The notes under the pieces are model-generated. The model had not been told where the DNA came from. It did no database searches and worked only from the letters and a program-made list of their open reading frames with translations. Shown piece by piece: positions 7,031 through 62,619 of a stretch of 64,000 bases of DNA. The translations under genes were made by a program, and so were the position numbers. The stretch's first letter is position 1; the number at the start of each line of letters is the position of its first letter. Source of the DNA: an uncultured bacterium (GTDB taxonomy: Bacteria > Babelota > Babeliae > Babelales > Babelaceae); assembly GCA_963722385.1 (NCBI GenBank), contig CAVRKK010000002.1, positions 896,001 to 960,000 of the forward strand, given 5' to 3'.

Positions 7031-8446
7031 ATGGCGATAATCCCCTTTTTACAAACGGTCCTACAAACGATTTGTAGGCCTATATTTGGCAGCTTTGAGC
7101 GAGAAGAGTTTAAAAAATTTCTGAGGATGGGACTTATTTTCGCGTTCATCCTTGGCTCTTATTGGACCTTGCGAGTACTAAAAGATTCTGTTTTGATAAA
7201 CCTTGTAGATAAGGCAGCGCAGCCATGGGCCAAGGGTTTGTCGCTTTTGTGCTTAGTTCCTATTCTTATGATTTATACGCGCTTATTTGATAAATATTCG
7301 CGTGAAAAAATGTTTTATCTGCTTGCTTCAGTATACACGGTAATAACCCTGCTTTTTGGCGTCCTGCTTCTTTTGCCCGGCGTTGGCCAAGCTGCTTCTG
7401 AAGTTATCGCTGCTCGGACCGGCCTTGCCTATTATGGTACTAAAATTATTGGTTATGCATGGTATGTTTTTGTAGAAAGCTATGGCTCGCTTGTCGTTGC
7501 ACTGTTTTGGGGATTGGCAACGGATATCACGATGCCCGACTCTGCCAAGCGCGGTTTCCCCTTAGTCGTAGCGATTGGGCAAATTGGTGGTATTTTGGGG
7601 CCGCTCCTTATTACCGGATTACCGCATCGACTTGGTTTGTCAACAAGTTCCCTTTCTATTTTTATAGCTGGCGGGGTTGTTTTTTCTATTATAGCGCTTC
7701 TTAAATATTTCTTCCGGGCAACGCCAAAAGATCTCTTGGTATCGTTTCATGGAAAAAACGAAGCTGTGGCCGAAGCGGAACAAGAGCCTGGCTTCCTGGA
7801 AGGACTGAAGCTTTTACTACAACATAAATATTTGCTCGGCATTTTTGCCGTTATTTCTTTTTACGAGATTATAGTTACGATCTTCGACTTCCATTTTAAA
7901 TATTTGGCCGGATCAGTCTATAGCGGTATAGCGCTGGATCGTTACTTTGGCTGGTATGGTTCGTCGGTTAACCTGGTTGCGCTTATATGCCTTTTACTGG
8001 GTGTCAGCAATATCACCCGGCTTCTCGGCGTTGGCGTAGCGCTCGCTTTAATGCCTATTATTGTAGGCGGCGCGCTTACAGGTTTTATTTCGGTGAATAG
8101 CTTGAATTTTCTCTTTTGGTTAATGGTCGGTTCTAAAGCTATTAACTATGCGTTAAATGGACCGGCTATGAAGCAATTATATATTCCGACAACCCCCGAC
8201 GTGCGCTTCAAGTCGCAGGCTTGGATAGAAACATTTGGCTCTCGTGGCTCAAAGGGGCTGGGATCTGTGTTTAATCTGACCCTCAAGCCGCTTACCAGGA
8301 CCCTTGGTGACATTGCAGGTCGTGCCCGGCACATTTGGTTAAGCGCATGGTTGGGCTTCACGCTGGTAGGTTTATGGTTTGTGATTGCGCTCTACCTAGG
8401 AAGAACCTATAAGCGTGCCATTGATCAGAAAAAGGTGGTTTGCTAG
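7031..8446 (+). CDS. NTT/TLC family nucleotide (ATP/ADP) transporter, paralog 1
   Basis: About 12 TMs; EFKKF, LRVLKDS, ALFWGLA, YIP..DVRFKSQAWIE..GSRGSK motifs. Confidence 0.9.
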   Translation: MAIIPFLQTVLQTICRPIFGSFEREEFKKFLRMGLIFAFILGSYWTLRVLKDSVLINLVDKAAQPWAKGLSLLCLVPILMIYTRLFDKYSREKMFYLLASVYTVITLLFGVLLLLPGVGQAASEVIAARTGLAYYGTKIIGYAWYVFVESYGSLVVALFWGLATDITMPDSAKRGFPLVVAIGQIGGILGPLLITGLPHRLGLSTSSLSIFIAGGVVFSIIALLKYFFRATPKDLLVSFHGKNEAVAEAEQEPGFLEGLKLLLQHKYLLGIFAVISFYEIIVTIFDFHFKYLAGSVYSGIALDRYFGWYGSSVNLVALICLLLGVSNITRLLGVGVALALMPIIVGGALTGFISVNSLNFLFWLMVGSKAINYALNGPAMKQLYIPTTPDVRFKSQAWIETFGSRGSKGLGSVFNLTLKPLTRTLGDIAGRARHIWLSAWLGFTLVGLWFVIALYLGRTYKRAIDQKKVVC

Positions 8447-8486
8447 ATGCCTGTCTGGCGCATCAAATATTACGCACATATTATGC

Positions 8487-8526
8487 ACAAGCCTTCTTTT
8501 GTCTTAGGATAGAAGAGGGCTTGTTT
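8487..8526 (+). terminator. Hairpin (putative intrinsic terminator or attenuator) between NTT1 and NTT2
   Basis: ACAAGCCTTCTT...AAGAGGGCTTGT imperfect inverted repeat followed by TT. Confidence 0.45.
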
Positions 8527-8542
8527 GCTCACGGTGGATGTC

Positions 8543-9925
8543 ATGAGCCTAATTGAACGATTTTTTGGTATTGAGCCTGCAGAGCGCTTAAAAGTAGCGC
8601 TGTTAACCTGTGCCTTTTTTCTTATTATCGGTTCTTATACGCTGGTACATCAGCTTAAGGATACGCTTTTTGTGCACATAGTAGGCAAAGAGTATATTCC
8701 AGTGGCCAAAATCTTATCACTTGTCCTTTTGGTTCTGCCGATCTTACTCTATGCCAAGCTTGTTGACAGTATGCGCAAGCATCATTTATTGTACGTATAT
8801 ACGATATTTTATGGTTTGCTCGGTTTGTATATTGCCTATTTCTTAGCGCACCCTACGATAGGACTGGCCAATACGGTTACGAGCAAATATCGGATCTTTG
8901 GCTGGTTGATTTATATTTTTATGGAAGGTTATTCGCCTTTTGTTGCAAGCTTGTTTTGGTCTTTCGTCAATTCGGTAACCCAACCAGAATCGTCAAAAAA
9001 CAGCTATCCTATTCTTATTGCCGGTTCTAAAATTGGTGGGATTGTGGCAGCTGGGTTTGCGATTTGGCTCTTAAGGCCTGATCCAATCACGCACACCTTA
9101 TGGTTTTCCGACATTGCTAACCACCAAATTCTTATGAGCATTGCGGCATGTTCATTGCTTTTAGTACCGGGTATTATTTATATCCTGGTTACCAAAGTGC
9201 CACACCGCTATTTGCATAGCTACGAATCGATACACCGTCCTGATCATGAGCTTCCACCAGAAGAGAAGCAAAATTGGCTTGCGCGTCTTTTTTCCGGTTT
9301 AACGTTGCTCTTTCGGTATCCTTATATCTTGGGCATTTTTGGTGTCGTGTTTTTTTGGGAGGTTCTTAACACGGTCTTTGCGTATGAGCGCTTAGGTGTG
9401 GGCAAAACTATTGCGGTCACTATTTCTGATTATACGCGATTTTTATTTGATGGTATTATTTTTGTTCATCTCATTGGCCTGGTGATCGTACTCTTTGGTA
9501 CGCGTATGGTGATCAATTGGCTTGGCGAGCGGCGCAGCCTTGTGCTCGTCCCGGTTTTGACAGGCATTTTATCGTTATATTATCTGACACAGCGGTCGGC
9601 CACGGCGATTTTGGTTGTTTTTGTATGTCTCAGAGCACTTAACTACGCGTTTGCACAAGCATTACGTGAGCGCTTGTATATTCCGACAACGCGTGACATG
9701 CGCTTTAAGTCTCGATCATGGATTGACGCTTTCGGGTCAAAGTTTGCGAAATCTTCAGGCTCGCTCTACAACCTTTTTATACAAACGGTTGCCCCGACGG
9801 CAGTTGGCAGCGCCAATGCAGCCTTTTTTGCCGTTATTATTGGTGCATGGATTGCAACGGCTTATTTGCTTGGCCGGCGCTTTGAGCGTGCCGTACAGCG
9901 AAATGAAGTAATCGGTTTGCAATAA
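8543..9925 (+). CDS. NTT/TLC family nucleotide transporter, paralog 2
   Basis: LKDTLF, SLFWSFVN, LYIPTTRDMRFKSRSWIDAFGSKFAK. ATG at 8543 chosen for its GGTGGA RBS. Confidence 0.85.
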   Translation: MSLIERFFGIEPAERLKVALLTCAFFLIIGSYTLVHQLKDTLFVHIVGKEYIPVAKILSLVLLVLPILLYAKLVDSMRKHHLLYVYTIFYGLLGLYIAYFLAHPTIGLANTVTSKYRIFGWLIYIFMEGYSPFVASLFWSFVNSVTQPESSKNSYPILIAGSKIGGIVAAGFAIWLLRPDPITHTLWFSDIANHQILMSIAACSLLLVPGIIYILVTKVPHRYLHSYESIHRPDHELPPEEKQNWLARLFSGLTLLFRYPYILGIFGVVFFWEVLNTVFAYERLGVGKTIAVTISDYTRFLFDGIIFVHLIGLVIVLFGTRMVINWLGERRSLVLVPVLTGILSLYYLTQRSATAILVVFVCLRALNYAFAQALRERLYIPTTRDMRFKSRSWIDAFGSKFAKSSGSLYNLFIQTVAPTAVGSANAAFFAVIIGAWIATAYLLGRRFERAVQRNEVIGLQ

Positions 9926-9930
9926 CAGTC

Positions 9931-11283
9931 ATGCTAAAAAAAATCGTCAAGCCGCTCAGTCAGGTTCCTTTTTTCGAAAAGGTCAAGATTGCCCTTCTGA
10001 CAGCCTCGTTTTTTTGTATCATAGCCTGTTACACGGTGTTGCGTGAGCTGCGCGATGTTATTTTTATCGATACGGTTGGGTGTTCGCATCTGCAGCACGT
10101 GCAAATTGCTTCGCTCTTTGCCTTAGTGCCGGCTCTTTTTTTATACGCGCTCTGCGTTGATCGCCTTAAAAAGCACCAACTCTTATACGTATATACGTTG
10201 TTATATGGCATAGGTGGCTTATTTATTGCATTTTATTTGGGGCGTCCCGCCGGATTTGTTGAGTGGGGAACGCGATCTTACGTGTTTGGCTGGTTGCAAT
10301 ATATTTTTATCGAAGGGTATGTTCCCTTTGTCATAAGCCCCTTCCTTGCGTTTGTCAGTTCGGTTATTACGCCTACTCGAGCGGCACAAAGCTATGCCGT
10401 GATTATAGGCGGATCCAAGCTAGGTGGTATGTTGACAGCGGCCCTTGCGTGGTGGTTTTTGCGCTTCTTATCGTGGCCTGGCGATACCACGTTGCGCTTC
10501 TTGCTCATACTTGCATCGCTCTTTATTTTTCTTGTACCAGTGCTGATTTTCTGGCTTAATAAAAGTGTTCCAGAAAGCTTTATGCGTGGGTATGAAGCAC
10601 ATTCTGTTCTTGATAAGAAAAATAAGCGGGATGGGGCTCCCTGGTATCAGGATTTGTTTTCTGGGCTGAGACATATGGCCAAATATCCCTATATTTTGGG
10701 TATTTTCGGTTTGGTATTCTCATGGGAAATAATCAGCGTGGTTCTCAGTTATCATCGGCTTGGCATGTGCGTCATGGTGCATAAAACTGTTGCCGGATTG
10801 AGTAGTGAGCTCTTTTTACAGATATTTTGGACGCATGTTCTGAGCTTTTTTATTACCTGTATTGGTGCGACATCGCTGTGTGCTGGAGCGGGCCAACGAT
10901 TAACCATGATGGCAGTTCCCATTCTTACCGGGTTCCTTGCGGTAGGATTTTTTACCAGTAAAGTATCGACTGTTATAATTGGCTGTTATATTCTCATGAG
11001 AGCACTTAATTATTCGTTAGCTCTTTCGGTGCGTGAAGTACTTTATATCCCAACAACGACGGAAATGCGCTTTAAATCAAAATCATGGATCGATGTCTTT
11101 GGCGCTAAATTTGCTCGAGGCTCCGGCTCGCTTTATGGCATTTTCGCCCAATCTTCGGGAGCCTGCACGGGTAGCTCGTACTTGTGCTTTTGTTTGACAA
11201 TTATTGGTTGCTGGATGATGACCGCGCATTTTTTGGGCAAGCGATTTGAAGCAGCTATTAAGCACCAGGAGGTTATTGGTTAA
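9931..11283 (+). CDS. NTT/TLC family nucleotide transporter, paralog 3
   Basis: LRELRDVIF, LYIPTTTEMRFKSKSWIDVFGAKFARG; paralogous to the two upstream genes. Confidence 0.85.
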   Translation: MLKKIVKPLSQVPFFEKVKIALLTASFFCIIACYTVLRELRDVIFIDTVGCSHLQHVQIASLFALVPALFLYALCVDRLKKHQLLYVYTLLYGIGGLFIAFYLGRPAGFVEWGTRSYVFGWLQYIFIEGYVPFVISPFLAFVSSVITPTRAAQSYAVIIGGSKLGGMLTAALAWWFLRFLSWPGDTTLRFLLILASLFIFLVPVLIFWLNKSVPESFMRGYEAHSVLDKKNKRDGAPWYQDLFSGLRHMAKYPYILGIFGLVFSWEIISVVLSYHRLGMCVMVHKTVAGLSSELFLQIFWTHVLSFFITCIGATSLCAGAGQRLTMMAVPILTGFLAVGFFTSKVSTVIIGCYILMRALNYSLALSVREVLYIPTTTEMRFKSKSWIDVFGAKFARGSGSLYGIFAQSSGACTGSSYLCFCLTIIGCWMMTAHFLGKRFEAAIKHQEVIG

Positions 11284-44100: not shown

Positions 44101-44790
44101 GGAACTTGTTTGAAAATCATAGTTTAAATTGATCCAATAAGCATTTTCATATTTTTGAAGTTAAGAAACCGTGATGTTATCAAAGTAAAAACAAAGAAAT
44201 GATTTTGGTATAAGTTTGATAACTTCTTGGTAGAAATAGTTTTAAGTTGTTTAAAAGCATTGATCCAAGCAAATGCATGCTCTACAAAGCGCCTTTTGGA
44301 ATCGCGAGAAACGATATATGGAGCTGTAAAGCCATGATTTCTAACAGGAATCTCAGCTCGACCGCCCATTCTTGAGATAAAAAGTCGATTTTTTAGAGAA
44401 TCAAAACCCTTGTCAGCATGTCCAGAAAAGCCTTTAGGAAGAGCAAATCTACAATCTGTTTGAGCCAATAATTCAGGCAAAAAATTCGTATCATTTGCAG
44501 TTCCTTTAGCTAAAATTAAAGCTAGCGGAATTGCTTTGCTATCCGAAGTAATCAAACGATTAATGCAATTTTTGTTCTTATGGCAATGGTTTTTTGATTT
44601 TATATCGATGCTTGATACCGTCAGAACCAGAGATTCAAATATAACTTTGCCAAGATTGTGTCGTCTTTTTCCATGTTTTTGCACGCCGTGGCCCTTTACA
44701 AAATATTTTGGAGAACCTTTGCAGGTAGCTATACCGTATAGAAAAAAGGTTCCTCAGCTGAGCAAGTTTGTAAAATATGGTTGCCAATAA
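44101..44790 (-). mobile_element. 5'-truncated IS5-family element with DDE transposase remnant (44124-44684)
   Basis: HADKGFDS and RRFVEHAFAWI motifs; IR-like GGAACTTGTTTGAAAATC at 44101; upstream frame has a stop and no matching second IR was seen. Confidence 0.7.
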
Positions 44791-44872
44791 AGATCTCGTT
44801 TATTAGTTAGTGTTTACAAAGTTTATACATTGTGATATCCTTTTTATTATTGCTATTAAAAAGAGTTATTAT

Positions 44873-45112
44873 ATGACAAAGAAGCTTATTAAGCATGGAA
44901 ACAGCCTGGCTCTCGTAATTGAAAAGCCAATTTTAAAAATGTTGGGGATTGATGAGGGAACAAGTATAGAGCTTTCTATTAAAGAAAACTCCCTTATCAT
45001 AAGAGCTGCTCATCCTAAAAAGGCTAAGACACGAGAGGAAGAAATTGAGGAGATAGCTCAAAAGATCATGAAAAAATATGATCAGGTGTTTAAAGAGCTT
45101 GCCAAAAAATAA
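44873..45112 (+). CDS. AbrB/MazE-type antitoxin
   Basis: MTKKLIKHGNSLALVIEKPIL...; stop overlaps the doc start. Confidence 0.88.
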   Translation: MTKKLIKHGNSLALVIEKPILKMLGIDEGTSIELSIKENSLIIRAAHPKKAKTREEEIEEIAQKIMKKYDQVFKELAKK

Positions 45113-45519
45113 TGGTTATAGACTTCATAAGTATACAAGATGTATCTCGTATACATGATAACGTTATTGCTCAATACGGTGGCTTAGCGGGTATAAGAGA
45201 TTATAATCTTTTAGCATCTGCTGTTGCTCAACCTCAAATGTTTATATTTGGTAGCTATATACATGTTGGTATATTTGATATGGCTGCAGCCTATTTCTTC
45301 CATATCATTAAAAATCACCCATTTTTGGATGGGAATAAGCGAACAGGTGTATTAGCAACACTAACGTTTCTTGAGAAAAACGGCATCATCATAGAAACAG
45401 ATTTCGATAGCTTAGTGAATCTAGCCTTAGAGACAGCCAGTGCAGATATAAGCAAAGAACATATTGCTCAATTTCTGAAACAAAGCGCAATCAATACCCA
45501 ACATAGTTATAAAGGATAA
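45112..45519 (+). CDS. doc: Doc (death-on-curing) family toxin
   Basis: GIRDYNLLASA and HPFLDGNKRTG Doc motif. Confidence 0.9.
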   Translation: MVIDFISIQDVSRIHDNVIAQYGGLAGIRDYNLLASAVAQPQMFIFGSYIHVGIFDMAAAYFFHIIKNHPFLDGNKRTGVLATLTFLEKNGIIIETDFDSLVNLALETASADISKEHIAQFLKQSAINTQHSYKG

Positions 45520-45572: not shown

Positions 45573-45899
45573 CTATTTTTTGCCCAAGTACTCTTCAATC
45601 CGCGCTTTTAAGTCTTCCTTGGGTAGGTAGCCCACTTGACGACCAACAACCTCATTATTTTTTATAAAGAGGAAGGTTGGTACGGAGGTTACATTGTAAC
45701 TGATGGCGAGATCGCGTGACTCATCGACATTGAGCTCTGCAAAGGTATAGGTATCGCCAAGCTCCTCCGCTAACTGTTCAAAATGCGGTTTAATGAGCAT
45801 GCATGGGCCACACCAGGTCGCGAAAATATCGATGACAACAGGCTTTTTTGCTTGTTCAATAACCTCTTTGGCATTTTGCTTGGTTAGCGTGACGATCAT
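45573..45899 (-). CDS. trxA: Thioredoxin
   Basis: WCGPC and VPTF motifs. Confidence 0.95.
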   Translation of the reverse strand: MIVTLTKQNAKEVIEQAKKPVVIDIFATWCGPCMLIKPHFEQLAEELGDTYTFAELNVDESRDLAISYNVTSVPTFLFIKNNEVVGRQVGYLPKEDLKARIEEYLGKK

Positions 45900-46059: not shown

Positions 46060-46752
46060 ATGTACCAGGAACATTCTTCAAGCCAGGATATCGTAAAAAA
46101 CTTATTTTATCGTGTTTATGGCTGGATGACGGCCGGGTTGTTGGTAACGGCGGGTACCGCTTTAGCCCTTGCTCGTCAACCAGCGTGGATCGATGCTCTT
46201 GTAACACGGCCATTTCTGGGTTTTTTGTTATTAATTATTCAGCTTGTTGTCGTAGTTGTTTTTGCAAGTATGCTTGCCAAGCTACCTTATACGGTTGCAT
46301 TAGGGCTGTTTATTTTTTACGCGATATTGAGCGGTGCGACGCTCTCCATTATTTTTAGCGTCTATACACGAGCATCGATTGCTCAAGCATTGCTTATAAG
46401 TGCTGGCATGTTTGGTTCGATTTCTCTCTGGGCTCGCGTTACCCACGCTGATCTCTCAAAAATGGGGTCGATTTTATACATGGCCTTGTGGGGAATGATA
46501 CTAGCCCTGGTGGTCAATATTTTTTGGCAGAACTCGCTTTTTAATTTCATGATATCAGCAGCCGGAGTGGTGCTGTTTTCAGCGCTTGTTGCTTACGATA
46601 CGTCGATGATTAAGCGCTACGCTACTGATATGACACATGCTCGTTCTAAAGAGTATGCTAAAGTTGGGCTTTTTGGAGCTTTTCAGCTTTATCTCGATTT
46701 TATCAACTTGTTCCTCAACCTGCTCAATATTACTGGTAGGCGCAGGCAGTAA
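46060..46752 (+). CDS. Bax inhibitor-1/YccA family membrane protein
   Basis: VYGWM..GL, AYDT..IK, LYLDFINLF motifs; 7 TMs. Confidence 0.92.
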   Translation: MYQEHSSSQDIVKNLFYRVYGWMTAGLLVTAGTALALARQPAWIDALVTRPFLGFLLLIIQLVVVVVFASMLAKLPYTVALGLFIFYAILSGATLSIIFSVYTRASIAQALLISAGMFGSISLWARVTHADLSKMGSILYMALWGMILALVVNIFWQNSLFNFMISAAGVVLFSALVAYDTSMIKRYATDMTHARSKEYAKVGLFGAFQLYLDFINLFLNLLNITGRRRQ

Positions 46753-46767
46753 TTTAAGGGGTGCACG

Positions 46768-48390
46768 ATGAAGCGCATGACGTGGTATATTGGGCTTATA
46801 GCGATTAATATTGTTGGTTGTGTTGTCGGGGCTCGCCCCATGGATGATAAGTGGCAAGCTGCTGAACAGTTTGTTGAGGAAGCGGCAAACTTTTTTGCAC
46901 GAAACTCCGCACACACTGCCTGTACCGACTTTACTCATAACCCACAGTGGCGGTTTCCAAGCTCGAGGCTTGTTGTTATCGATGAAAAAGGGCTTATTTG
47001 GTTTTTAATGGATAAGCCTGTCCATCTATGGACGCCATTGGCCGATCTAAAAACCGAACGGAATGTGCCTTTGACACATGATATGCGTTTACAAGGCCAA
47101 AAAGGAGGCTGGGTTGCTTTTATTTGGGATCAAGCGTTGGTTAGAGCATACGTAAAAAATGTTCATAAAGCTGATCAGCTTTTTACGATTGGTCTGCTTG
47201 TTTTTAGTGAAAATCCGCGTGATCAGATTCAAGAGCAAGTATTGGCAGCTTACTCTTATCTTCGTGATCACGGCATTAAGCGAACTGCCGAGGAAATTAA
47301 CAACCCTAATGGACGATTTTTGCATGGTTCTCTCTCTGTGGCATTATATGATCAAGATGGCATCTGTTTGGCAGATTCTTTTGATTGGACGCATATTAAC
47401 CAAAGAAGCACGAATTGGCTTGATGACAGTGGTCAATCGGTTTTTTCTCAATTTGTAGCTGCGGCACAGCATTCGCCGAGCGGGAACGGTTGGGTAAAAT
47501 ATACGTTTCAGGGGATGATTGAGCATGCTTTTGTTAAATATGTACCGCACCGAAATCCTAAAAAGTTTTATATCCTCGCATCAGGGTATTACCCAGCAGT
47601 CGATGAGAAATTTGTGGTCAATTTTGCGCAACAGGCGAGCGACTATATCAAGCAATATGGTATACATAAGGCACTTGCCGACTTTGCAGAACAGAGAACG
47701 ACTTTTTATAAAGCCCGATTAGCGCTTGTTATTTACGACGAAAAGGGCATAGTAAAGGCACAAACGAGATTTCCTTCGCTCATAGGGGTTAATGCTTATA
47801 ATTTACGTGATCAAGCAGGTTATCCTATTACGCAATTGATTTTAAAAAAGGGACTTGAAGAGGGGCACGGGTCGGTTTTCCAATATGTTGCCAATGCCGC
47901 TGAGCCTGTTTACTGCCAAAAATTGGTTGTGCCCGAAGGGGTTTTTGTTATCACGGTGCAAGGCTTTACGCCACTGCACAAGATGACCCTTGCGGCAGGT
48001 ATTGCTGAATGGCTAAGCTACCGGTTAGCAAATCAGCCAGCAAGAATTATCATGAACGCACTAAATCAAGGTGATGTGGTAGGGAATATAGGATTTAGGG
48101 CTTCAGGCGCTCGCCGAGTTTATACTGATTTTGTTATCGAAATTTACGATGGTCAAGGTTTCTGTCTCTCAGCAGGTTCCAATTATTACCTAATATGGCA
48201 AGCTATTGATCGCGGTATGAAACTAAGTGTTGAGAAAATGAAAAGGGCTGGTGCGAGCTCAGGGTCTTTTCATGATGTTCACCAGGGCATAGGTCGTGAC
48301 TATTATTTAAAGGAATGTGTTAAAAGTGCACGAGAAAAGTATTATATTTTTGTTGGCTACCATACGCTCCGCAAGGGAGCCGAGGAATGA
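46768..48390 (+). CDS. Exported protein with four tandem single-Cache-like domains (paralog 1)
   Basis: Signal peptide; four ~125-aa units (A..Y....G...A..F / V.YD..G.CLA / GWV.Y / SGYY). Confidence 0.8.
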   Translation: MKRMTWYIGLIAINIVGCVVGARPMDDKWQAAEQFVEEAANFFARNSAHTACTDFTHNPQWRFPSSRLVVIDEKGLIWFLMDKPVHLWTPLADLKTERNVPLTHDMRLQGQKGGWVAFIWDQALVRAYVKNVHKADQLFTIGLLVFSENPRDQIQEQVLAAYSYLRDHGIKRTAEEINNPNGRFLHGSLSVALYDQDGICLADSFDWTHINQRSTNWLDDSGQSVFSQFVAAAQHSPSGNGWVKYTFQGMIEHAFVKYVPHRNPKKFYILASGYYPAVDEKFVVNFAQQASDYIKQYGIHKALADFAEQRTTFYKARLALVIYDEKGIVKAQTRFPSLIGVNAYNLRDQAGYPITQLILKKGLEEGHGSVFQYVANAAEPVYCQKLVVPEGVFVITVQGFTPLHKMTLAAGIAEWLSYRLANQPARIIMNALNQGDVVGNIGFRASGARRVYTDFVIEIYDGQGFCLSAGSNYYLIWQAIDRGMKLSVEKMKRAGASSGSFHDVHQGIGRDYYLKECVKSAREKYYIFVGYHTLRKGAEE

Positions 48391-48394
48391 TACG

Positions 48395-49969
48395 GTGCGC
48401 AAAAAAATTATAGGCTCCATGCTCATCGTACTACTGAATGTATCTCTATCGACAATGGGGGCTGTGCCCCGCGTGGTCGATTTAAAAATAAAAGCAGAAA
48501 AGCTGCTTGCTCAAGCGATTTCTTTTATTAGAAAAGAGGGTGCTGATAAAGCGTGTGCCGCATTTGCCTCTCAAGAGCAGTGGCGGTATGGTCCGATAAC
48601 TCTTCTTGTTTTAGATGCTAACGGAAGAATACTCCTTGACGAGCATCAGACGATTTTAACGTGGCGGCCTTATTCCCGCAAACAAGGTTATGTGAGCTCT
48701 GTGGTAAGCTCGCTGCTTTTCGCCGCAATAAAAGGGGGCTGGGTTGCTCATCGTTTGTTTAATAGTATGCGCCATATCTATGTCAAGTCAGTGACCGTAG
48801 AGGGCAAAACGTACATAATGGGTGCAAGCTTTTTCGATGAGTCACCTGAGCTTATTGCGATAGCGATGGCCAGAAAAATAGAACGGTTATGGCGAAGTGT
48901 CGGTTTTAATAAAGCGATTGAGCTTGTCAATAACCCTTTTGGTCCAGCATCTGTTGGCCAAGTGTACGGTATAGTTTTTGGTACGGCAGGTGTATGTTGG
49001 GCCTTCAGCAATAACAACGTGTTAGTAGGGCAAAACCTATTTGGAGCGCGTACGGTGAGCGCACAAAGTGCCTATAATTTTAAATATATTTTAAACCTTC
49101 TTAAAGCTGAACCACAAAAGAAAATATGGGTTGACGTAAAAGAGAATGAATTGCTCCATCGTTTCTATTGCCAGCTTTTTACTGATGACAAAACAAATAA
49201 AGACTATGTTCTTATAACAGGGTATTATCCAGATATAAATGACCAAACAATCATCAATATAGGCGAACAAGTTGCTACTGATCTTACCGCGGGCGGGCTC
49301 GAAAGAATTAAAACCCTTTCTCGGCAGAAAGACCTCAGGCTTACGCCAGCAAATCTCACTCTTACGGTCACTGATCGGCAAGGTGTGATGCTCTATCATA
49401 GCGCACCAAACCAAGGTACGTGGTTTACGGGCCGAAATATTCTTGATTATGTTGATGATCGAAAGCGGCCCTATAGCCGTATGCTGATGCAAAAGCTACA
49501 GAAAGCTCCGAGTGCATGGATTACCCGTTTTAATAAGCGTACAATTGAGCGTGTGTATGGTCGTAAAATACCTATGCCGAATGGGGACGTATACATATTC
49601 ATCGATGGTTACTTCCCTTCGACCGACGAAGAAGTAACCCGTATTTTGGTTGATGACGCCTATGACTATTTAGCCGAAAATCCTTCTATACAAGCATTTA
49701 ATGCTTTTATGAGTAGAGACTGTTTCTTTATGCAAGGAGAAAAGCAGATATTTGTTTATGACAAAACGGGAGCATGCTGGGTAAAGGGAACAAATTCCGC
49801 TTTTATATGGAGCCAGGATAAACTTATACCAGCACTTGCTGAAGGCTGGGCAGAAGATAAGCGGTCGTCCAATATTAAGAGAATGTATATTCGAAAGTTA
49901 ACAAAGCAGAATACTTCTCAGCAGAAAGAAGAATTTATTATAGGATCGAGCTATTATTTGGTTAAATAG
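48395..49969 (+). CDS. Exported protein with four tandem single-Cache-like domains (paralog 2)
   Basis: GTG start with GAGGA RBS; signal peptide; AEKLLAQAISFIRKEGADKACAAF and related repeats ending G.Y/F. Confidence 0.8.
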   Translation: MRKKIIGSMLIVLLNVSLSTMGAVPRVVDLKIKAEKLLAQAISFIRKEGADKACAAFASQEQWRYGPITLLVLDANGRILLDEHQTILTWRPYSRKQGYVSSVVSSLLFAAIKGGWVAHRLFNSMRHIYVKSVTVEGKTYIMGASFFDESPELIAIAMARKIERLWRSVGFNKAIELVNNPFGPASVGQVYGIVFGTAGVCWAFSNNNVLVGQNLFGARTVSAQSAYNFKYILNLLKAEPQKKIWVDVKENELLHRFYCQLFTDDKTNKDYVLITGYYPDINDQTIINIGEQVATDLTAGGLERIKTLSRQKDLRLTPANLTLTVTDRQGVMLYHSAPNQGTWFTGRNILDYVDDRKRPYSRMLMQKLQKAPSAWITRFNKRTIERVYGRKIPMPNGDVYIFIDGYFPSTDEEVTRILVDDAYDYLAENPSIQAFNAFMSRDCFFMQGEKQIFVYDKTGACWVKGTNSAFIWSQDKLIPALAEGWAEDKRSSNIKRMYIRKLTKQNTSQQKEEFIIGSSYYLVK

Positions 49970-49977
49970 GTGGCTAT

Positions 49978-51597
49978 ATGTGGTGTGGTTGGTTTTTTGT
50001 TGCCGCGATCTTACTTGCTCATTCATTCTGTTTGGGCCAAGAAAAAGTAAATATAAAAGAAAAAGAGCGTGCGCTCTATAAGCTCTTGCGGCGCGGTGCT
50101 GCCTATTTTAAGCGACACCCTGTTGGCCAATCATGTCACACTTTTACGTATGATCCTCGCTGGCGGAACGGGGAACTTTTTCTTTTTTTACTTGATAGCG
50201 AAGCGGTGTGTTATGCGTTTGGTGATGAGCGATCGAGGGTCTGGACAAGTTTTGCTCATTACCGAGACCTTCTGGGGACACCGTTGGTGAACAAGTTTTT
50301 TCAAAAAGGGAAAAGCACAAAAATTTCAGTTATGATGAATAATGCCTCAATGCACTGCCGTATTAAAAAAATAAATAAAGAAGGGAAGACGTTTATATTA
50401 GGATGTGGATTTTATCCCGAGGCAAGTGAACAGATCGTAGAAAATCTTGTAGCCCAAGCCATTGAGGTGCTTGAAGAGATTGGTACTCAGAATGGTTTTA
50501 GCGAAATCAGTAACCCATTTGGGCACTTGGTGCATGGCGATAGTTGTGTGTTCGTTATTGGCGAAGATGGCATGGTTTACGCGCAGAGTGATAACATAGC
50601 GCAAATGGGAAAAAATATTTTTAATCCACCTTTGGATCCCCCGGGCTCGCTAGCTTATCAGGATAAAGCGGCATATAGGCATGTTTTGGTAAGCTTTTTA
50701 AGAAGCAATGAACAAAGAGCTTGGCTGCCACCTATTATGGTTAATAATACAACTAAGCGCATTTTTGTTGCCAAGTATCGGGATCCCAAAACGCGCAAGC
50801 GGTTTATTGTCGGTTCATTTTATTATCCTGAGCTGAATGATGAAGCTATTTATGAATTAGTGCAAAAAGCTATTACGTACCTTAAAGCCCAAGGGCGGCG
50901 TGCTGCCTTTGAGACATTTAATACGCCAGAAGGTCCTCTGGCACTAGGTAGTGGTAGAATTATAGTTTTAAATTTTGACGGTGCTTGTTTAGTTGATGCA
51001 ACACCAGCGAATTTAGCTGGTTCTTATTTGATAGATCGCGCTGATGTGCAAGGGCATTACCCCTATCGTAGGATCCTTGAGGGTATACAGCGTTATGGGC
51101 GCAGCTGGATTAGCCAGTATCTTAAAAATGCTTATCAGCTCATGTATGCTGAGAAAGTTGATCTTCCTGACGGCTCACTGATCATTGCTGCTGGTTATTG
51201 GCCTGACTCTAAAGCGCTGACCGTGAGGTCGATGGTCGACCGTGCCGCTAATTTTTTGGAGCGGAATGGCGAAAGTGCTGCCTTAAGAAAGTTTACCACG
51301 CATGATTCAGATTTTGTGCGTGGCGATGTCAATATTATGGCGCTTGATCCCACAGGAATTATTTTAAGTGATGGGCCTTTTCGCAAATATCGGATCTGGT
51401 CCGATGTTGCTTTGCGTGATCGATTTGGTAGGCATGTTATTAATAAAATTCTTGAAACAGCCGCGCAGGGAGGAGGATGGGTAGGCTATCGCAAATTTAA
51501 TGCTGACTACCGTGCATATACTCGCCAGATTGATATACCAGGAAGCACTAATACCAAAGATAATAGCATGGTGCTTGTCGCAGGGTATTATCTTTAA
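49978..51597 (+). CDS. Exported protein with four tandem single-Cache-like domains (paralog 3)
   Basis: Four units ending GCGFYPE, GSFYYPE, AAGYWPD, VAGYYL; LVQKAITYLKAQGRRAAF; AQGGGWVGY. Confidence 0.82.
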   Translation: MWCGWFFVAAILLAHSFCLGQEKVNIKEKERALYKLLRRGAAYFKRHPVGQSCHTFTYDPRWRNGELFLFLLDSEAVCYAFGDERSRVWTSFAHYRDLLGTPLVNKFFQKGKSTKISVMMNNASMHCRIKKINKEGKTFILGCGFYPEASEQIVENLVAQAIEVLEEIGTQNGFSEISNPFGHLVHGDSCVFVIGEDGMVYAQSDNIAQMGKNIFNPPLDPPGSLAYQDKAAYRHVLVSFLRSNEQRAWLPPIMVNNTTKRIFVAKYRDPKTRKRFIVGSFYYPELNDEAIYELVQKAITYLKAQGRRAAFETFNTPEGPLALGSGRIIVLNFDGACLVDATPANLAGSYLIDRADVQGHYPYRRILEGIQRYGRSWISQYLKNAYQLMYAEKVDLPDGSLIIAAGYWPDSKALTVRSMVDRAANFLERNGESAALRKFTTHDSDFVRGDVNIMALDPTGIILSDGPFRKYRIWSDVALRDRFGRHVINKILETAAQGGGWVGYRKFNADYRAYTRQIDIPGSTNTKDNSMVLVAGYYL

Positions 51598-52502
51598 GTT
51601 TCTGCCCCACGCTTAGTTTTTTTGGCCAGCTCATCATAATAAAAGACGAGAAGCCCTAAGAAGATAACGCTTGCGGCTACTGCAAAGTGGATCGTCAATT
51701 TTTCATGTAAGAAAAGCCATGCATATATACCAGCAAAGATAGGGACCGAAAACCCTGCCAGCGATATAAAGGTAGCGTTATGATGCTTAAGCAGATTGGC
51801 ATACATCGTATATGCTATGACATTACCGACAATAATCGTATAAGCCAACAAGAGCAAAAAGATTGGCCATGAATCGATGGTAATATTCTTGATGGGGTCG
51901 ATCCAAAGAGCTGTTGCTGTGGCAATTAGACCGCTTTCAAGCATGACGAGACCGTTTAACTGGGCAGGTGCGTAACGATTTTTTTTGAGCTGAGCTTGCA
52001 CCATGAGCCACCCCCAGCGGCTAAAGGCAACAGCGGCAAGGGCAGCTAACTGAGGAAGCAGGGCAAAGTGGAAGCAAGCATGTATTGCTTCTGGTGAAAG
52101 GTCAATCGCAAGCAGGACGCCGAGGCAGCCTAAGACTATGCCGAGGATTTTATTGATGCTGAGTTTTTCGCCAAATAAAATATAGGCATAAAGAGCCGTG
52201 ACGAAAGGGTCTATACTGCCAAGCAGTGTAGCATGTGCTGTTTTTAAATGGGCAAGTGCATATGCTTTCAGAACAGAAGGAATAAAAGTGGTAAATAGGG
52301 CGATGCCGCTTATTAAGAACCAGTCTTGTTTGAGCTGAAATAAATTTTTGCGGTATTTCTTCCAGGTCAGGATGCAGAGAATAAGCCCCGCGCTGACCAT
52401 ACGTAAAGCGACTAGGGTTGTAGGGGGAAGCGTTTGAAGGAGCAGCTTATTGACGAAGATGCCGCTTGCAAAAAGAGCAAACGTGAAAAAAATGATAAAC
52501 AC
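51594..52502 (-). CDS. EamA/DMT family transporter
   Basis: About 10 TMs; PFVTALYAYILFGEKL; resembles 3013-3915. Confidence 0.85.
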   Translation of the reverse strand: MFIIFFTFALFASGIFVNKLLLQTLPPTTLVALRMVSAGLILCILTWKKYRKNLFQLKQDWFLISGIALFTTFIPSVLKAYALAHLKTAHATLLGSIDPFVTALYAYILFGEKLSINKILGIVLGCLGVLLAIDLSPEAIHACFHFALLPQLAALAAVAFSRWGWLMVQAQLKKNRYAPAQLNGLVMLESGLIATATALWIDPIKNITIDSWPIFLLLLAYTIIVGNVIAYTMYANLLKHHNATFISLAGFSVPIFAGIYAWLFLHEKLTIHFAVAASVIFLGLLVFYYDELAKKTKRGAET

Positions 52503-57854: not shown

Positions 57855-58316
57855 ATGAAAAAAGGATCTAGTTCTGAAAAGCTTTTACTTGAGTATATTT
57901 CAGAGGCAGCGAAAGAAGTACAAACAATTGCGCGAGGACTGACGATAGGAAAATACGTTAAGTTTATTCGGCGGCAATTAAGAATGTCTCAGCAAGTTCT
58001 TGCAAAACGTGCTCAAGTTCCGCAGCCGACGATTTCTCGGCTCGAACAAGGCCGGAGTGAACCAACCTTATCAACATTGTCTAAGATATTTGATGCTCTT
58101 TTTTGTGAATTGGTTATTGCTCCTGTATTAAAAGAACCTATCGATATTATTCTACAAAAGCAGGCACATAAAGTTGCTCAAAAGCACATTGCTTATTTGA
58201 AGGGGACGATGAATCTTGAGCAACAAGAGCCAGATAATCAATTAGTAGCAGAGCTTGTTAAGCGTAAGCAGGAAGAATTACTGCATACCAATAGCAAACA
58301 ACTATGGGAAGAATGA
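57855..58316 (+). CDS. XRE-family HTH protein (mobile mystery protein A-like)
   Basis: IRRQLRMSQQVLAKRA.V.QPTISRLEQG..TLSTL, C-terminal GTMNLEQQ..LW; stop overlaps the Fic gene start. Confidence 0.85.
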   Translation: MKKGSSSEKLLLEYISEAAKEVQTIARGLTIGKYVKFIRRQLRMSQQVLAKRAQVPQPTISRLEQGRSEPTLSTLSKIFDALFCELVIAPVLKEPIDIILQKQAHKVAQKHIAYLKGTMNLEQQEPDNQLVAELVKRKQEELLHTNSKQLWEE

Positions 58317-59016
58317 ACATGATATTTTTTAGCTTTCCAGAAGATGCAACACCTATCAATGACTATAGCGGATTAAAGCTCACCTGGGTAAAAGATATAC
58401 CTGACTTGAATAGAGCTGAAGCTGAAAATATTATTCAAGCCAGGATCAATACCTGCATAAAAAGGTAATGATGCCTGAGCGGTGGTTTCATATAAGCTTC
58501 TTGAAAAAGGTGCATCAAGAAATGTTTGGTGATGTATGGGACTGGGCAGGAGAGTTTAGGAAAACTGTTACGTCAGTTGGAATAGAGCCAGCTTTAATTC
58601 ATCATCAATTAGGCGAATTATGCATCGAAGTAAATGCATGGTCTAAAAATCCTGTTGAGCTCACTTTTGTGGAAAAAGCTGTTCGGATTCACCACCGATT
58701 AGTATTCATTCATCCTTTTGAGAATGGGAACGGCCGCTTCTCGCGCTTAATCGCCGATCGCTATTTAGCAGCTTACCATTGCTCATACCCAAGCTGGCCC
58801 CATATTTTACAAGATAATGGTGAAGCACGATTATTATATATTCAAAGTTTGAAAGCAGCAGATAGAGGTGATTTGCTGCTGAAGTTGGTCTATCTCTATG
58901 GTGCAAGAAACCCTTCTGCTCATGATTTAGCAAAGAATCCTTTCTATAGAAGACATTTTTTAGAAGAGCAAACGTTAGCGATTATTAAAGCTTTAACTCG
59001 ATTTATACAGAGCTAG
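58313..59016 (+). pseudogene. Fic-domain protein (mobile mystery protein B-like), frameshifted at ~58441
   Basis: N-part DATPINDYSGL...LNRAEAENIIQA; 1-nt loss; then MFGDVWDWAGEFR and HPFENGNGRFSR. Confidence 0.82.
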
Positions 59017-60403: not shown

Positions 60404-60558
60404 GCAACAAACTTAAAGTTAATCTTTGGCAGCATGAGGGAGTACGGCATACCACATTATGGAGAGATTGTTAAGCAGAAGCACGTTGAGCTGTTGGTGG
60501 CCGTTGACCGTTTGGCTATTTATGGTAATCTTTAAATATGATTATTAAAAAATTATGT

Positions 60559-60644
60559 GCCGGGGTGGCGGAATGGCAGACGCACGAGACTCAAAATCTC
60601 GCGATGGCAACATCATGTCGGTTCGAGTCCGACCCTCGGTACCA
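60559..60644 (+). tRNA. tRNA-Leu(CAA)
   Basis: CGAGA-CT-CAA-AA-TCTCG, variable arm, GGTTCGAGTCC, CCA. Confidence 0.95.
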
Positions 60645-60658
60645 GAGATGGAATGACA

Positions 60659-60997
60659 ATGGCTGAATGTATATTTTGTCAAATTATTGCTGGCAAGCTT
60701 CCCGCCGCTGTCATTCTTGAAAATGACCAGGTAATTGTTATAAAGGATATCGCGCCCAAGGCGCCTATTCATTATCTTATTATTCCGAAGAAGCATGTGC
60801 CTGATATCGAATCTCTTGCGCCCGTTGATTATGATCTTGGTGCTCTTATATTTTCAACTGCGCAAAAGTTAGCACAGCAACAGCCGGAATTGCAAGATTT
60901 TAATATGCTCATTAATAATGGTCGCAAGGCCGGCCAGATTATTTTTCACTTGCACGCGCACTTTCTGGTGGGTGCGCAGATTGGGAAGCACTTTTAG
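60659..60997 (+). CDS. HIT-family nucleotide-binding protein
   Basis: CIFCQI, DIAPKAPIH.LIIPKKH, HLHAH triad. Confidence 0.93.
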   Translation: MAECIFCQIIAGKLPAAVILENDQVIVIKDIAPKAPIHYLIIPKKHVPDIESLAPVDYDLGALIFSTAQKLAQQQPELQDFNMLINNGRKAGQIIFHLHAHFLVGAQIGKHF

Positions 60998-61001
60998 TTA
61001 C

Positions 61002-61088
61002 GCCGGGGTGGCGAAATTGGTAGACGCGCAGGCTTCAGGAGCCTGTGGTGGCAACACTGTGCCGGTTCGAGTCCGGCCTCCGGCACCA
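61002..61088 (+). tRNA. tRNA-Leu(CAG)
   Basis: CAGGC-TT-CAG-GA-GCCTG, variable arm, CCA. Confidence 0.95.
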
Positions 61089-61095
61089 GGTTAGT

Positions 61096-62619
61096 ATGAA
61101 ATCAATATTTCTTGCTTCGGTTGTCGCAGCAATTACCGCAGCAAGCATTATGAGTTACGTAGCGCTTGCTACTCCCCTGGGCCCCTGGATCGAGCCTGTG
61201 CTTGTTCTATCCCTTTTGGCAATTATGCGGCTGGCCAGACAGCGCCATAATACCGATCTGCTGGTAGCTGTTTCAGCGTCAGGTGGCGTAGCGGGTATTG
61301 CGGCTGTTGCCTGTTCTTTTTCTTACCCAACACTCTTTTTTCTTGAGCCGGCACTGTTTGGTCAGTGGTTAGCAGCCCCCTTCTGTTTTATGGGCGGGTT
61401 GGCATCTCTCATTATCACCACGGGAGGGATTGCGTTTGTGCTTGTTGAGCTCTGTCAGGAGCAATTTCTTGGCCGTGAGGACTTGCCGTTTCCGTTGGTT
61501 AAGCTGGTGAGCAAACTGGTGAGTGTTCATGATAATGCCCCCCCTCGGTCGACACAGTTTTGTAAAGGCGTCGTGGGTTGCCTTATGGTTACGGGTGCTC
61601 AAAAACTTATGGTGAGTTCCTCCTTGAGCAGCGATAGCAGTCTGCTTGTAGCGCTCGGTTATGGCATTGGGCACACTATAGCGTTACCGTTAGCCGTTGG
61701 ATGCTTAATGAAGCTGACGTTACTTGATGGCTTAAAAAATTTATTTACACAAGTAAGCGCTCGTCAGCTCGTATTTGCTTGGTGTGCGGGTATGGTTGGC
61801 TATGGGGCATTGGAAAGTGTCATTCATATGGTGCGCTCATTAAGCTTTTACCGCTTACGCTCTGTTCGCTTAACGGAGTTTGTAAAGGCGCCGCAGGGCT
61901 TTGTGTGGAGCGGTGCCTTTGGGATCCCTGTCGTTTTGGTAAGCTCTGGCTTGGTGTTGCGCTTTTTTACGTTTTCGTGGCCGTCGATTATCTTTTTGTG
62001 GATAGCGACAATTATTGGTGCGCATCAGCTTCTGCTGATTGGTGCAAAAATAGGCCTGGCACCCTTAGGTCGCTACGCCTTACTGATTACCCTCGGTGGA
62101 TTAGCGTTCTTTCGATTTACCTCGGTTCACCTATCCATTGCAGCGACATTTGTTGAGCTTTGTGGTGGTATTGCGGTGGACCTCATGTTTGGCCGTAAAT
62201 TGGCTAACCTAACGGAAAGCGAGCGAGTTCCTGTTCGCCTTTGCCAAGCGATTGGGCTTATTATAGGTGCGCTCACGGTGAGCTTCATGATGTGGTTACT
62301 GAGCACGCAGGTGGGCATCGGACAACCTCCCCTTATTGCGCAGCGAGCCGCTACTCGTGCCTTGCTTGTTAAGGTGCATGATTTTCATTTGGCGAGCATA
62401 GTGTTGGGTGCTTGTTGTGCTTATATTCTTGCTCGCCTTAAAATTAACCCTGTGTTAGTTATGAGCGGCCTGTTCATGCCCCTTAACTATGTTGCTCCCT
62501 TGATCGGCGGAAGCTTAATAGGAAAGCTTAGCAAAGACAGTGAGTACTATTATCCCGCATGGGCCGGTGTTTTTGCGACAGCATCATTAATGACGCTTTT
62601 GGGCCTTTTTTGGCATTAA
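61096..62619 (+). CDS. OPT/YSL-like oligopeptide transporter
   Basis: Many TMs; LPFP, DLMFG.KL..Q.IG, PLIAQRA motifs. Confidence 0.7.
   Translation: MKSIFLASVVAAITAASIMSYVALATPLGPWIEPVLVLSLLAIMRLARQRHNTDLLVAVSASGGVAGIAAVACSFSYPTLFFLEPALFGQWLAAPFCFMGGLASLIITTGGIAFVLVELCQEQFLGREDLPFPLVKLVSKLVSVHDNAPPRSTQFCKGVVGCLMVTGAQKLMVSSSLSSDSSLLVALGYGIGHTIALPLAVGCLMKLTLLDGLKNLFTQVSARQLVFAWCAGMVGYGALESVIHMVRSLSFYRLRSVRLTEFVKAPQGFVWSGAFGIPVVLVSSGLVLRFFTFSWPSIIFLWIATIIGAHQLLLIGAKIGLAPLGRYALLITLGGLAFFRFTSVHLSIAATFVELCGGIAVDLMFGRKLANLTESERVPVRLCQAIGLIIGALTVSFMMWLLSTQVGIGQPPLIAQRAATRALLVKVHDFHLASIVLGACCAYILARLKINPVLVMSGLFMPLNYVAPLIGGSLIGKLSKDSEYYYPAWAGVFATASLMTLLGLFWH

Follow-up and report, generated by a model that had tools for sequence, protein, structure and literature searches.

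The stretch of DNA analysed here (the window, 64,000 nt) covers positions 896,001 to 960,000 of contig CAVRKK010000002.1, from an uncultured Babelaceae bacterium (assembly GCA_963722385.1, genome G000 below). Directly behind a gene for a Bax1-I family membrane protein, it encodes three paralogous proteins, each made of a signal-peptide-like N-terminus and four tandem Cache domains (Table 1). According to the open reading frame (ORF) listing of the window, the three genes are co-directional on the plus strand and separated by gaps of only 4 and 8 nt. The first begins 15 nt downstream of the Bax1-I gene, and the last stop codon overlaps the convergent EamA gene by 4 nt. The three products have basic isoelectric points (pI 8.5-9.3) and are 22-24% identical in pairs over 474-510 aligned residues. 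The start of paralogue 2 was placed at 48395, from which its 523-aa orthologue in genome G008 aligns; the ORF finder gave 48317, which overlaps paralogue 1.

Table 1. Genes at the four-Cache locus (window positions; "tetrad" gives, for domains 1 to 4, how many of the four carboxylate-binding residues described in the text are kept).
Feature	Position	Strand	Description
Paralogue 1	46768..48390	+	540 aa; signal-peptide-like N-terminus and four sCache_2-fold domains; Trp88 and Trp477 present; tetrad 0,1,0,0 of 4
Paralogue 2	48395..49969	+	GTG start, 524 aa; signal-peptide-like N-terminus and four Cache domains, the last of them shortened; the two Trp present; tetrad 0,1,1,1
Paralogue 3	49978..51597	+	539 aa; signal-peptide-like N-terminus and four sCache_2-fold domains; Trp89 and Trp474 present; tetrad 0,1,0,1
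YbhL-type TMBIM (Bax1-I) membrane protein	46060..46752	+	conserved yet dispensable neighbour; probably heads the transcript of the three paralogues
Thioredoxin	45573..45899	-	divergent; belongs to the conserved bamA-cysS-trxA-(unknown)-ybhL-Cache4 block
EamA transporter	51594..52502	-	convergent; not a conserved neighbour, left out of the system

The Pfam sCache_2 model (PF17200) taken alone is clear in gene 1 only (44.6 bits, E 1.9e-11; curated cut-off 25), weak in gene 3 (20.7 bits) and without a match in gene 2; at E 0.001 it matches 32 of 34 family members. Four position-specific hidden Markov models (HMMs) were built from 60 homologues outside the clade that carries three copies (the triplet clade). 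They recognised all 12 domains of the window, each domain best by the model of its own position, and the weakest match was that of gene 1 domain 4 (E 1.7e-7). The AlphaFold2 models of gene 1 and gene 3 each contain four Cache folds, with a predicted local distance difference test (pLDDT) of 88.9 and 89.3, respectively, and a predicted TM-score (pTM) of 0.85 in both; the fold of gene 2 is assigned by HMM only. In both models every repeat is composed of a long N-terminal helix, a second helix and a PAS-like five-stranded sheet, and the domain limits of paralogue 3 lie at about residues 24-146, 147-284, 285-409 and 410-539. The closest solved structure is 4K08 for both gene 3 (Z 17.3, root-mean-square deviation (rmsd) 2.0, 120 aligned residues) and gene 1 (Z 16.2). 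PscD (5G4Y) matches gene 3 with Z 16.9, and 4EXO and TlpB are further sCache_2 matches of the two models. A search of solved structures with the gene 3 sequence singly gave no match; the family profile found five.

An earlier note, made from the sequence alone, had described three tightly spaced paralogues of about 525-540 aa with a signal peptide and four Cache repeats each. This description is borne out by the ORFs, the position HMMs, the two AlphaFold2 models and the match to 4K08 at Z 16-17. The comparison with sCache_2 models that it proposed recovers four domains per protein with the position-matched HMMs, and the repeats do adopt a Cache/PAS-like fold in the models of genes 1 and 3. The dCache architecture was not found, as each repeat carries its own two helices and not one long helix with two PAS-like subdomains; when dCache structures were superposed, the rmsd was low over one module but rose to 8-9 once about 190 residues were included.

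In the three proteins the sole strong hydrophobic peak is N-terminal. An N-terminal hydrophobic stretch occurs in 179 of 189 family members, and none of the 189 shows an internal peak exceeding 1.8 in a Kyte-Doolittle plot over 19 residues. The flanking transmembrane (TM) helices and cytoplasmic output domain of Cache membrane receptors (methyl-accepting chemotaxis proteins (MCP), histidine kinases, diguanylate cyclases) are not present in the trio, and the earlier claim that there is no second TM segment or signalling output domain is upheld by hydrophobicity and domain searches. A conserved lipoprotein anchor was considered and rejected: a lipobox was found in only 6 of 189 members, and both orthologues of paralogue 1 are without the possible lipobox of that protein. 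The trio is likely to consist of Sec-exported, soluble, stand-alone arrays of four sCache_2-fold domains with no output domain, probably located in the periplasm.

Among known systems, the sensors Adeh_3718 (4K08), PscD (5G4Y), VP0183 (4EXO/2QHK) and TlpB (3UB6) resemble the four-Cache proteins in fold (Z 14-17), in sequence profile and, for members outside the triplet clade, in a Tyr-His-Tyr-Lys tetrad of the pocket. In these sensors, however, a single sCache_2 domain lies between two TM helices of a chemoreceptor, whereas here four domains stand in tandem with no TM or output, with a Trp-centred surface on domains 1 and 4 and, in the window, with no tetrad. SMP_2 and the stand-alone sCache_heme are published examples of output-free, neofunctionalised Cache proteins (PMC4822843; bioRxiv 10.64898/2026.02.01.703092), but they belong to other Cache families and are not four-domain arrays, and no Pfam match to them was found among 34 members. 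Upadhyay et al. give outputs for every Cache family except SMP_2 (PMC4822843), and the 2026 preprint that describes sCache_heme calls stand-alone Cache proteins 'highly unusual' (bioRxiv 10.64898/2026.02.01.703092). The calcium-channel protein alpha2-delta and CACHD1 appear among the Foldseek matches. They bear four Cache modules in one extracellular chain, as dCache_1 pairs together with VWA and a membrane anchor. The trio is without VWA or anchor, and the whole-chain TM-score to these proteins is 0.13-0.18; no whole-chain match was found among solved and viral proteins either (TM-score at most 0.20). By fold the four-Cache protein belongs to the Cache superfamily, and its presumed mode of action is that of sCache_2 ligand-binding modules; Cache receptors, dCache proteins and alpha2-delta are all different from it.

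The source genome (1.6 Mb, 93% complete) encodes tandem ATP/ADP translocases and ankyrin proteins. Babeliales are known as protist parasites. A homologue from the same family is labelled Ca. Babeliaceae, and further named ones among the best 120 of 192 database matches are Ca. Dependentiae; members are annotated as 'cache domain-containing protein' and often mislabelled 'cytochrome c' or 'histidine kinase'. The distribution was examined by profile search in 250 other genomes of the phylum, a sample that includes many incomplete genomes and close kin, which do not count as independent. The four-Cache gene was found in 39/39, 72/75, 3/4 and 1/1 genomes of four Babeliales families (115/119 in total) and in none of 131 genomes of the other 17 families. 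Pfam sCache_2 gave nearly the same picture (38, 72, 3 and 1 genomes; elsewhere 2/131, each with one weak match). No diverged Cache copy was seen behind ybhL in 20 loci of Cache-less families, and when named genomes were scanned for the pattern of gene 3, none of the 22 stretches obtained was confirmed. The CysS and YbhL trees resolve too poorly to tell whether the four Cache-bearing families form one clade. A role as substitute for peptidoglycan was rejected, as mraY is present in 36/39 and 72/75 genomes and in G000, and the Cache gene persists in three genomes where mraY gave no match.

The usual state is a single copy within a bamA-cysS-trxA-(unknown gene)-ybhL-Cache4 block. The triplet occurs in G000, G001 and G008, where each paralogue groups with its own orthologues in the tree; since a single copy is usual, the three-gene operon is a core gene that has expanded locally. 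Other tandem duplications were found in G015, G203, G019, G137, G084 and G153. In G153 (L070:7085-10624), a 1179-aa protein with eight Cache domains, that is two fused four-domain units, lies directly behind a normal four-domain gene. Separately, G004 (L033:6328-7731) bears a second copy away from the usual locus, N-terminally truncated to about three domains and without signal peptide.

The nearest short relatives are proteins of about 150-190 aa consisting of a signal peptide and one sCache_2 domain, mostly 42-53% identical over one domain and named from Burkholderiales, Geomonas, Silvanigrella and Methanomicrobia. Their database labels are again 'cache domain-containing protein', 'cytochrome c' and 'histidine kinase', and Cache-only clusters of 160-427 aa, including two- and three-domain sizes, are found in the Atlas. 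Profile scores pair domain 2 with domain 3 (265) and domain 1 with domain 4 (241), and the single-domain family is closest to domains 2 and 3 (241-245, vs 168-189 for domains 1 and 4). We infer that the four-Cache gene arose by quadruplication of such a stand-alone secreted single-Cache gene and not by truncation of a receptor. The single-Cache proteins are alike in having only a signal peptide and sCache_2, but they differ in having one domain, Gly in place of the loop Trp and varied neighbours: over 80 loci the neighbouring genes include glnE (38), a TonB receptor (22) and MCP (10), and no partner is indicated. No functional study of them was found in the literature searched. One stand-alone family, from Oxalobacteraceae and others (L108-L187), keeps the whole carboxylate tetrad. 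Its genes are frequently found behind glnE, and it seems not to have been characterised.

Among the sCache_2 sensors, PscD binds propionate via Y90, H103, Y143 and K156 between W92 and W145 (PMC5062169); three residues of this tetrad are termed critical for carboxylate binding (PMC5062169; PMC12415202). In 27 single-Cache relatives, taken from 88 short matches, the tetrad positions hold Tyr in 27, His in 26, Tyr in 24 and Lys in 27. Among four-domain proteins, domain 2 keeps all four residues in 96 of 146 rows and at least three in 125 of 146, a row set enriched for kin of the query and from which four triplet-type rows had been dropped. At least three residues are kept by domain 1 in 56 of these rows, by domain 3 in none and by domain 4 in one. 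Counted by protein, some domain keeps at least three tetrad residues in 41/44 proteins without tandem copies and in 12/15 from other multi-copy genomes, as opposed to 1/14 in the triplet clade and 0/3 in the window. None of the 12 window domains keeps more than one of the four residues, so that the Tyr-His-Tyr-Lys set is nowhere present. The pocket positions also differ between orthologues: domain 2 of gene 2 reads YIFFVEH in the window, YIHFFER in G001 and YVHYFSK in G008.

Because the tetrad is kept in members outside the triplet clade and lost in the window, the ancestral single-copy protein was likely a one- or two-site carboxylate binder, with its site in domain 2 and often in domain 1 too, and the three copies of the window are likely not acid binders, as judged from alignments. 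The ligand of the ancestral protein may have been acetate, pyruvate, lactate or a similar acid. The earlier idea of a multivalent ligand-binding array fits the single-copy relatives, which have one and sometimes two intact pockets of four; it does not fit the trio, given the pocket residues of its 12 domains.

A second conserved feature is a near-invariant Trp in domain 1 (167/174 rows) and domain 4 (171/174), where domains 2 and 3 and the single-domain proteins have Gly; both Trp are kept in all three window proteins. Two copies of the orthologue from genome G012 (residues 36-535, 150-row alignment) gave a predicted homodimer with a score of 0.46, the best of three controls reaching 0.00. This score was attained by 20 of 30 solved homodimers and by 1 of 23 single chains. 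The three runs scored 0.02, 0.51 and 0.46, with a partner pLDDT of at least 77. In the predicted interface, domain 1 (57-65, 80-98) packs on domain 4' of the other chain (431-438, 455-473), centred on W96 and W471. The 24 predicted contacts covary with a mean z of 0.59 (p 0.003), and other interface pairs with 0.07. These results support, but do not show, a head-to-tail homodimer between domains 1 and 4', and the oligomer that had been suggested for the trio gains support from this model of an orthologue. The three paralogues may pair with themselves or with each other. As the domain-1 Trp loop lies eight residues after the pocket His, ligand control of assembly is conceivable.

Taken together, these features are best explained by an exported array that binds carboxylates and associates with itself, the triplicated copies of which would have become pocket-degenerate assembly subunits; the probability of this explanation is put at about 45%. 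A chain of four sCache_2 domains would be exported by Sec as a soluble protein, and chains would pair head-to-tail, domain 1 of one meeting domain 4 of the other at their Trp-centred surfaces. In the ancestral single-copy form, domain 2 and in many cases domain 1 would bind a short carboxylic acid, and the protein would hold or read host carboxylates without a membrane receptor. Binding beside the pairing loop of domain 1 might shift the assembly, and the three copies of the window, which are without the acid-binding residues, would likely serve as assembly subunits and not as acid binders. The natural 1179-aa fusion of two units was counted in favour of pairing. In a bolder version, families almost devoid of two-component signalling would sense host entry by a carboxylate that binds at domains 1-2 and thereby makes or breaks a head-to-tail, Trp-latched assembly in the envelope, and the window copies would form ligand-blind subunits of a hetero-oligomeric envelope scaffold composed wholly of one-time sensor domains. 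This would be a receptor-free Cache system but is rather unlikely.

Several points weigh against the self-associating array. No partner or output was found, and its putative location is the periplasm, the surface or the host. The pocket positions were mapped by sequence alignment to 4K08 and not by superposition, and a domain without the tetrad may still bind a ligand, because the sCache_2 domain of TlpB binds a non-carboxylate through a different pocket (PMC5062169). The dimer was modelled on the G012 orthologue as a homodimer; one run in three gave only 0.02, and agreement between runs was low (at least 1% of contacts). The covariation alignment is nearly the same as the input of the model and is not independent of it, and free direct coupling analysis was dominated by noise.

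Two rival readings also start from the exported array and concern what the triplet does. It could be a diversified ligand array whose pockets are re-tuned to other host metabolites, acting as a multivalent periplasmic scavenger or buffer. The three paralogues are intact in G000, G001 and G008, with an orthologue identity of 26-58% per domain, tandem duplication recurs in the six genomes named above, and single substitutions retune sCache_2 specificity (PMC12415202). However, the pocket positions are mostly not conserved among orthologues, which looks like relaxation and not like a new specificity. There is moreover no linked transporter: none but YbhL is conserved at the locus, and G000 gave no TRAP DctM or SDF match, other transporter families not having been searched, with one SBP_bac_3 locus elsewhere in the genome. 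This reading is considered unlikely. It is also unlikely that the proteins pass beyond the periplasm by type II secretion, to the cell surface or the protist host, as a sponge, adhesin or coat, with the triplet a product of host-driven diversification. Two secretin matches in the genome, the long branches with repeated tandem duplication and the basic pI are compatible with this, and type II secretion has been predicted for B. massiliensis (PMC4378268). But the gene is near-universal, mostly single-copy and fixed among housekeeping genes, unlike the scattered ankyrin repertoire, and no eukaryote-like domain or whole-chain likeness to a solved or viral protein was found.

Two further readings assign the array a partner in the cell. 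The upstream gene, which the earlier note had called YccA, is corrected to the YbhL type: it scores 25.6 bits against NF007765 (YccA, FtsH modulator), with a cut-off of 353, and is 39.8% identical to E. coli ybhL, its closest solved relative being YetJ by a weak match. The four-Cache protein might be an auxiliary subunit or substrate feeder of YbhL/TMBIM, as alpha2-delta is for calcium channels, and in 26 of 37 genomes of relatives, at hand-picked loci read by eye, ybhL does immediately precede the Cache gene in the same orientation. The overall fold is nevertheless unlike that of alpha2-delta, and the two genes are lost independently. Of 39 genomes from the same family, 13 (including four assembled as a single contig) have no Bax1-I gene, yet each of the 13 keeps the Cache gene; Bax1-I is present in Cache-less families (10/10, 16/16 and 13/14). 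In genus g12 the domain-2 tetrad is intact in 10/10 rows with a Bax1-I match in 2/10 genomes; the triplet clade is the reverse, keeping ybhL and losing the tetrad. The adjacency is better explained by a shared promoter and ancestral gene order than by a partnership, which we regard as improbable. YbhL is known under the label of acetate permease, which the literature checked did not confirm. EamA, the other transporter proposed as partner, accompanies the Cache gene at 2 of 19 loci from relatives. Least probable of all is a detached sensor signalling in trans via a histidine kinase, chemoreceptor or cyclase, although fusion to outputs of this kind is the rule for over 90% of Cache domains (bioRxiv 10.64898/2026.02.01.703092). 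The NCBIfam sensor parts of MctS and CtpM are seen in 23/34 and 15/34 members. However, the 93%-complete G000 gave no Response_reg, MCPsignal, GGDEF, Guanylate_cyc or HAMP match in a search that left aside Ser/Thr kinases, phosphatases and anti-sigma factors. Its two HATPase_c matches lie in frames of 815 and 616 aa, which from length alone we take to be gyrase- and MutL/HtpG-sized proteins. Within the four Cache-bearing families, 8 of 119 genomes have a receiver domain, against 32/33 and 11/12 in two Cache-less families, though other Cache-less families are also without it; a host-cue sensor in trans, as once proposed for the trio, is hence hardly to be expected.

Some other observations were made at these loci and genomes. 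A receiver-domain protein in a 420-480-aa frame is kept by the Cache-less families f11 (32/33) and f6 (11/12), and most other families have almost none. Between trxA and ybhL, many Babeliales encode an unknown protein family of 170-280 aa (L022:9107-9808 and 25 other loci), in either orientation and absent from the window; it gave no Pfam or NCBIfam match, and its Atlas matches, below 0.9, are to unnamed clusters. A gene of the RPE65/carotenoid-oxygenase family recurs near the locus in several Babeliales (L076, L079, L080, L084, L091, L093 and L100). In the window, an inserted transposase remnant and a MazE-like/Fic-Doc toxin-antitoxin pair lie between cysS and trxA (44124-45519), a second HTH/Fic pair is found at 57855-59016, and three TLC ATP/ADP translocase genes stand in tandem at 7031-11283, the third scoring far lower (38.5 bits). 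Rfam models gave tRNAs and signal recognition particle RNA only, none inside the three Cache genes. Two tRNA matches (60559-60641 and 61002-61085) run into the beginnings of ORFs 60557-60997 (HIT) and 61045-62619, so the starts of these ORFs were probably called too early. Promoter-like sites were at chance level (20 vs 15.8 +/- 4.3), and of terminator-like sites (12 vs 7.3 +/- 1.8) none was accepted as functional.

No description of an exported four-Cache architecture was found in the literature searched. The Dependentiae genome papers PMC4776705, PMC4378268 and PMC6561590 do not use the word 'Cache' in their main text, although their supplements may list the gene. The receptor-free four-Cache protein is a real and well-defined core protein of four Babeliales families, apparently undescribed so far. 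Cache domains are usually taken as input modules of membrane receptors, and few output-free families (SMP_2, sCache_heme) have been described. Here an intracellular lineage with reduced genomes keeps a four-Cache core gene (115/119) in the absence of the classical outputs, and the protein must therefore work in another way. The gene also serves as a lineage marker. The family offers a clean test set, as it includes single copies with an intact pocket, paralogues that have lost the pocket residues but share the predicted interface, and one naturally fused protein of eight domains.

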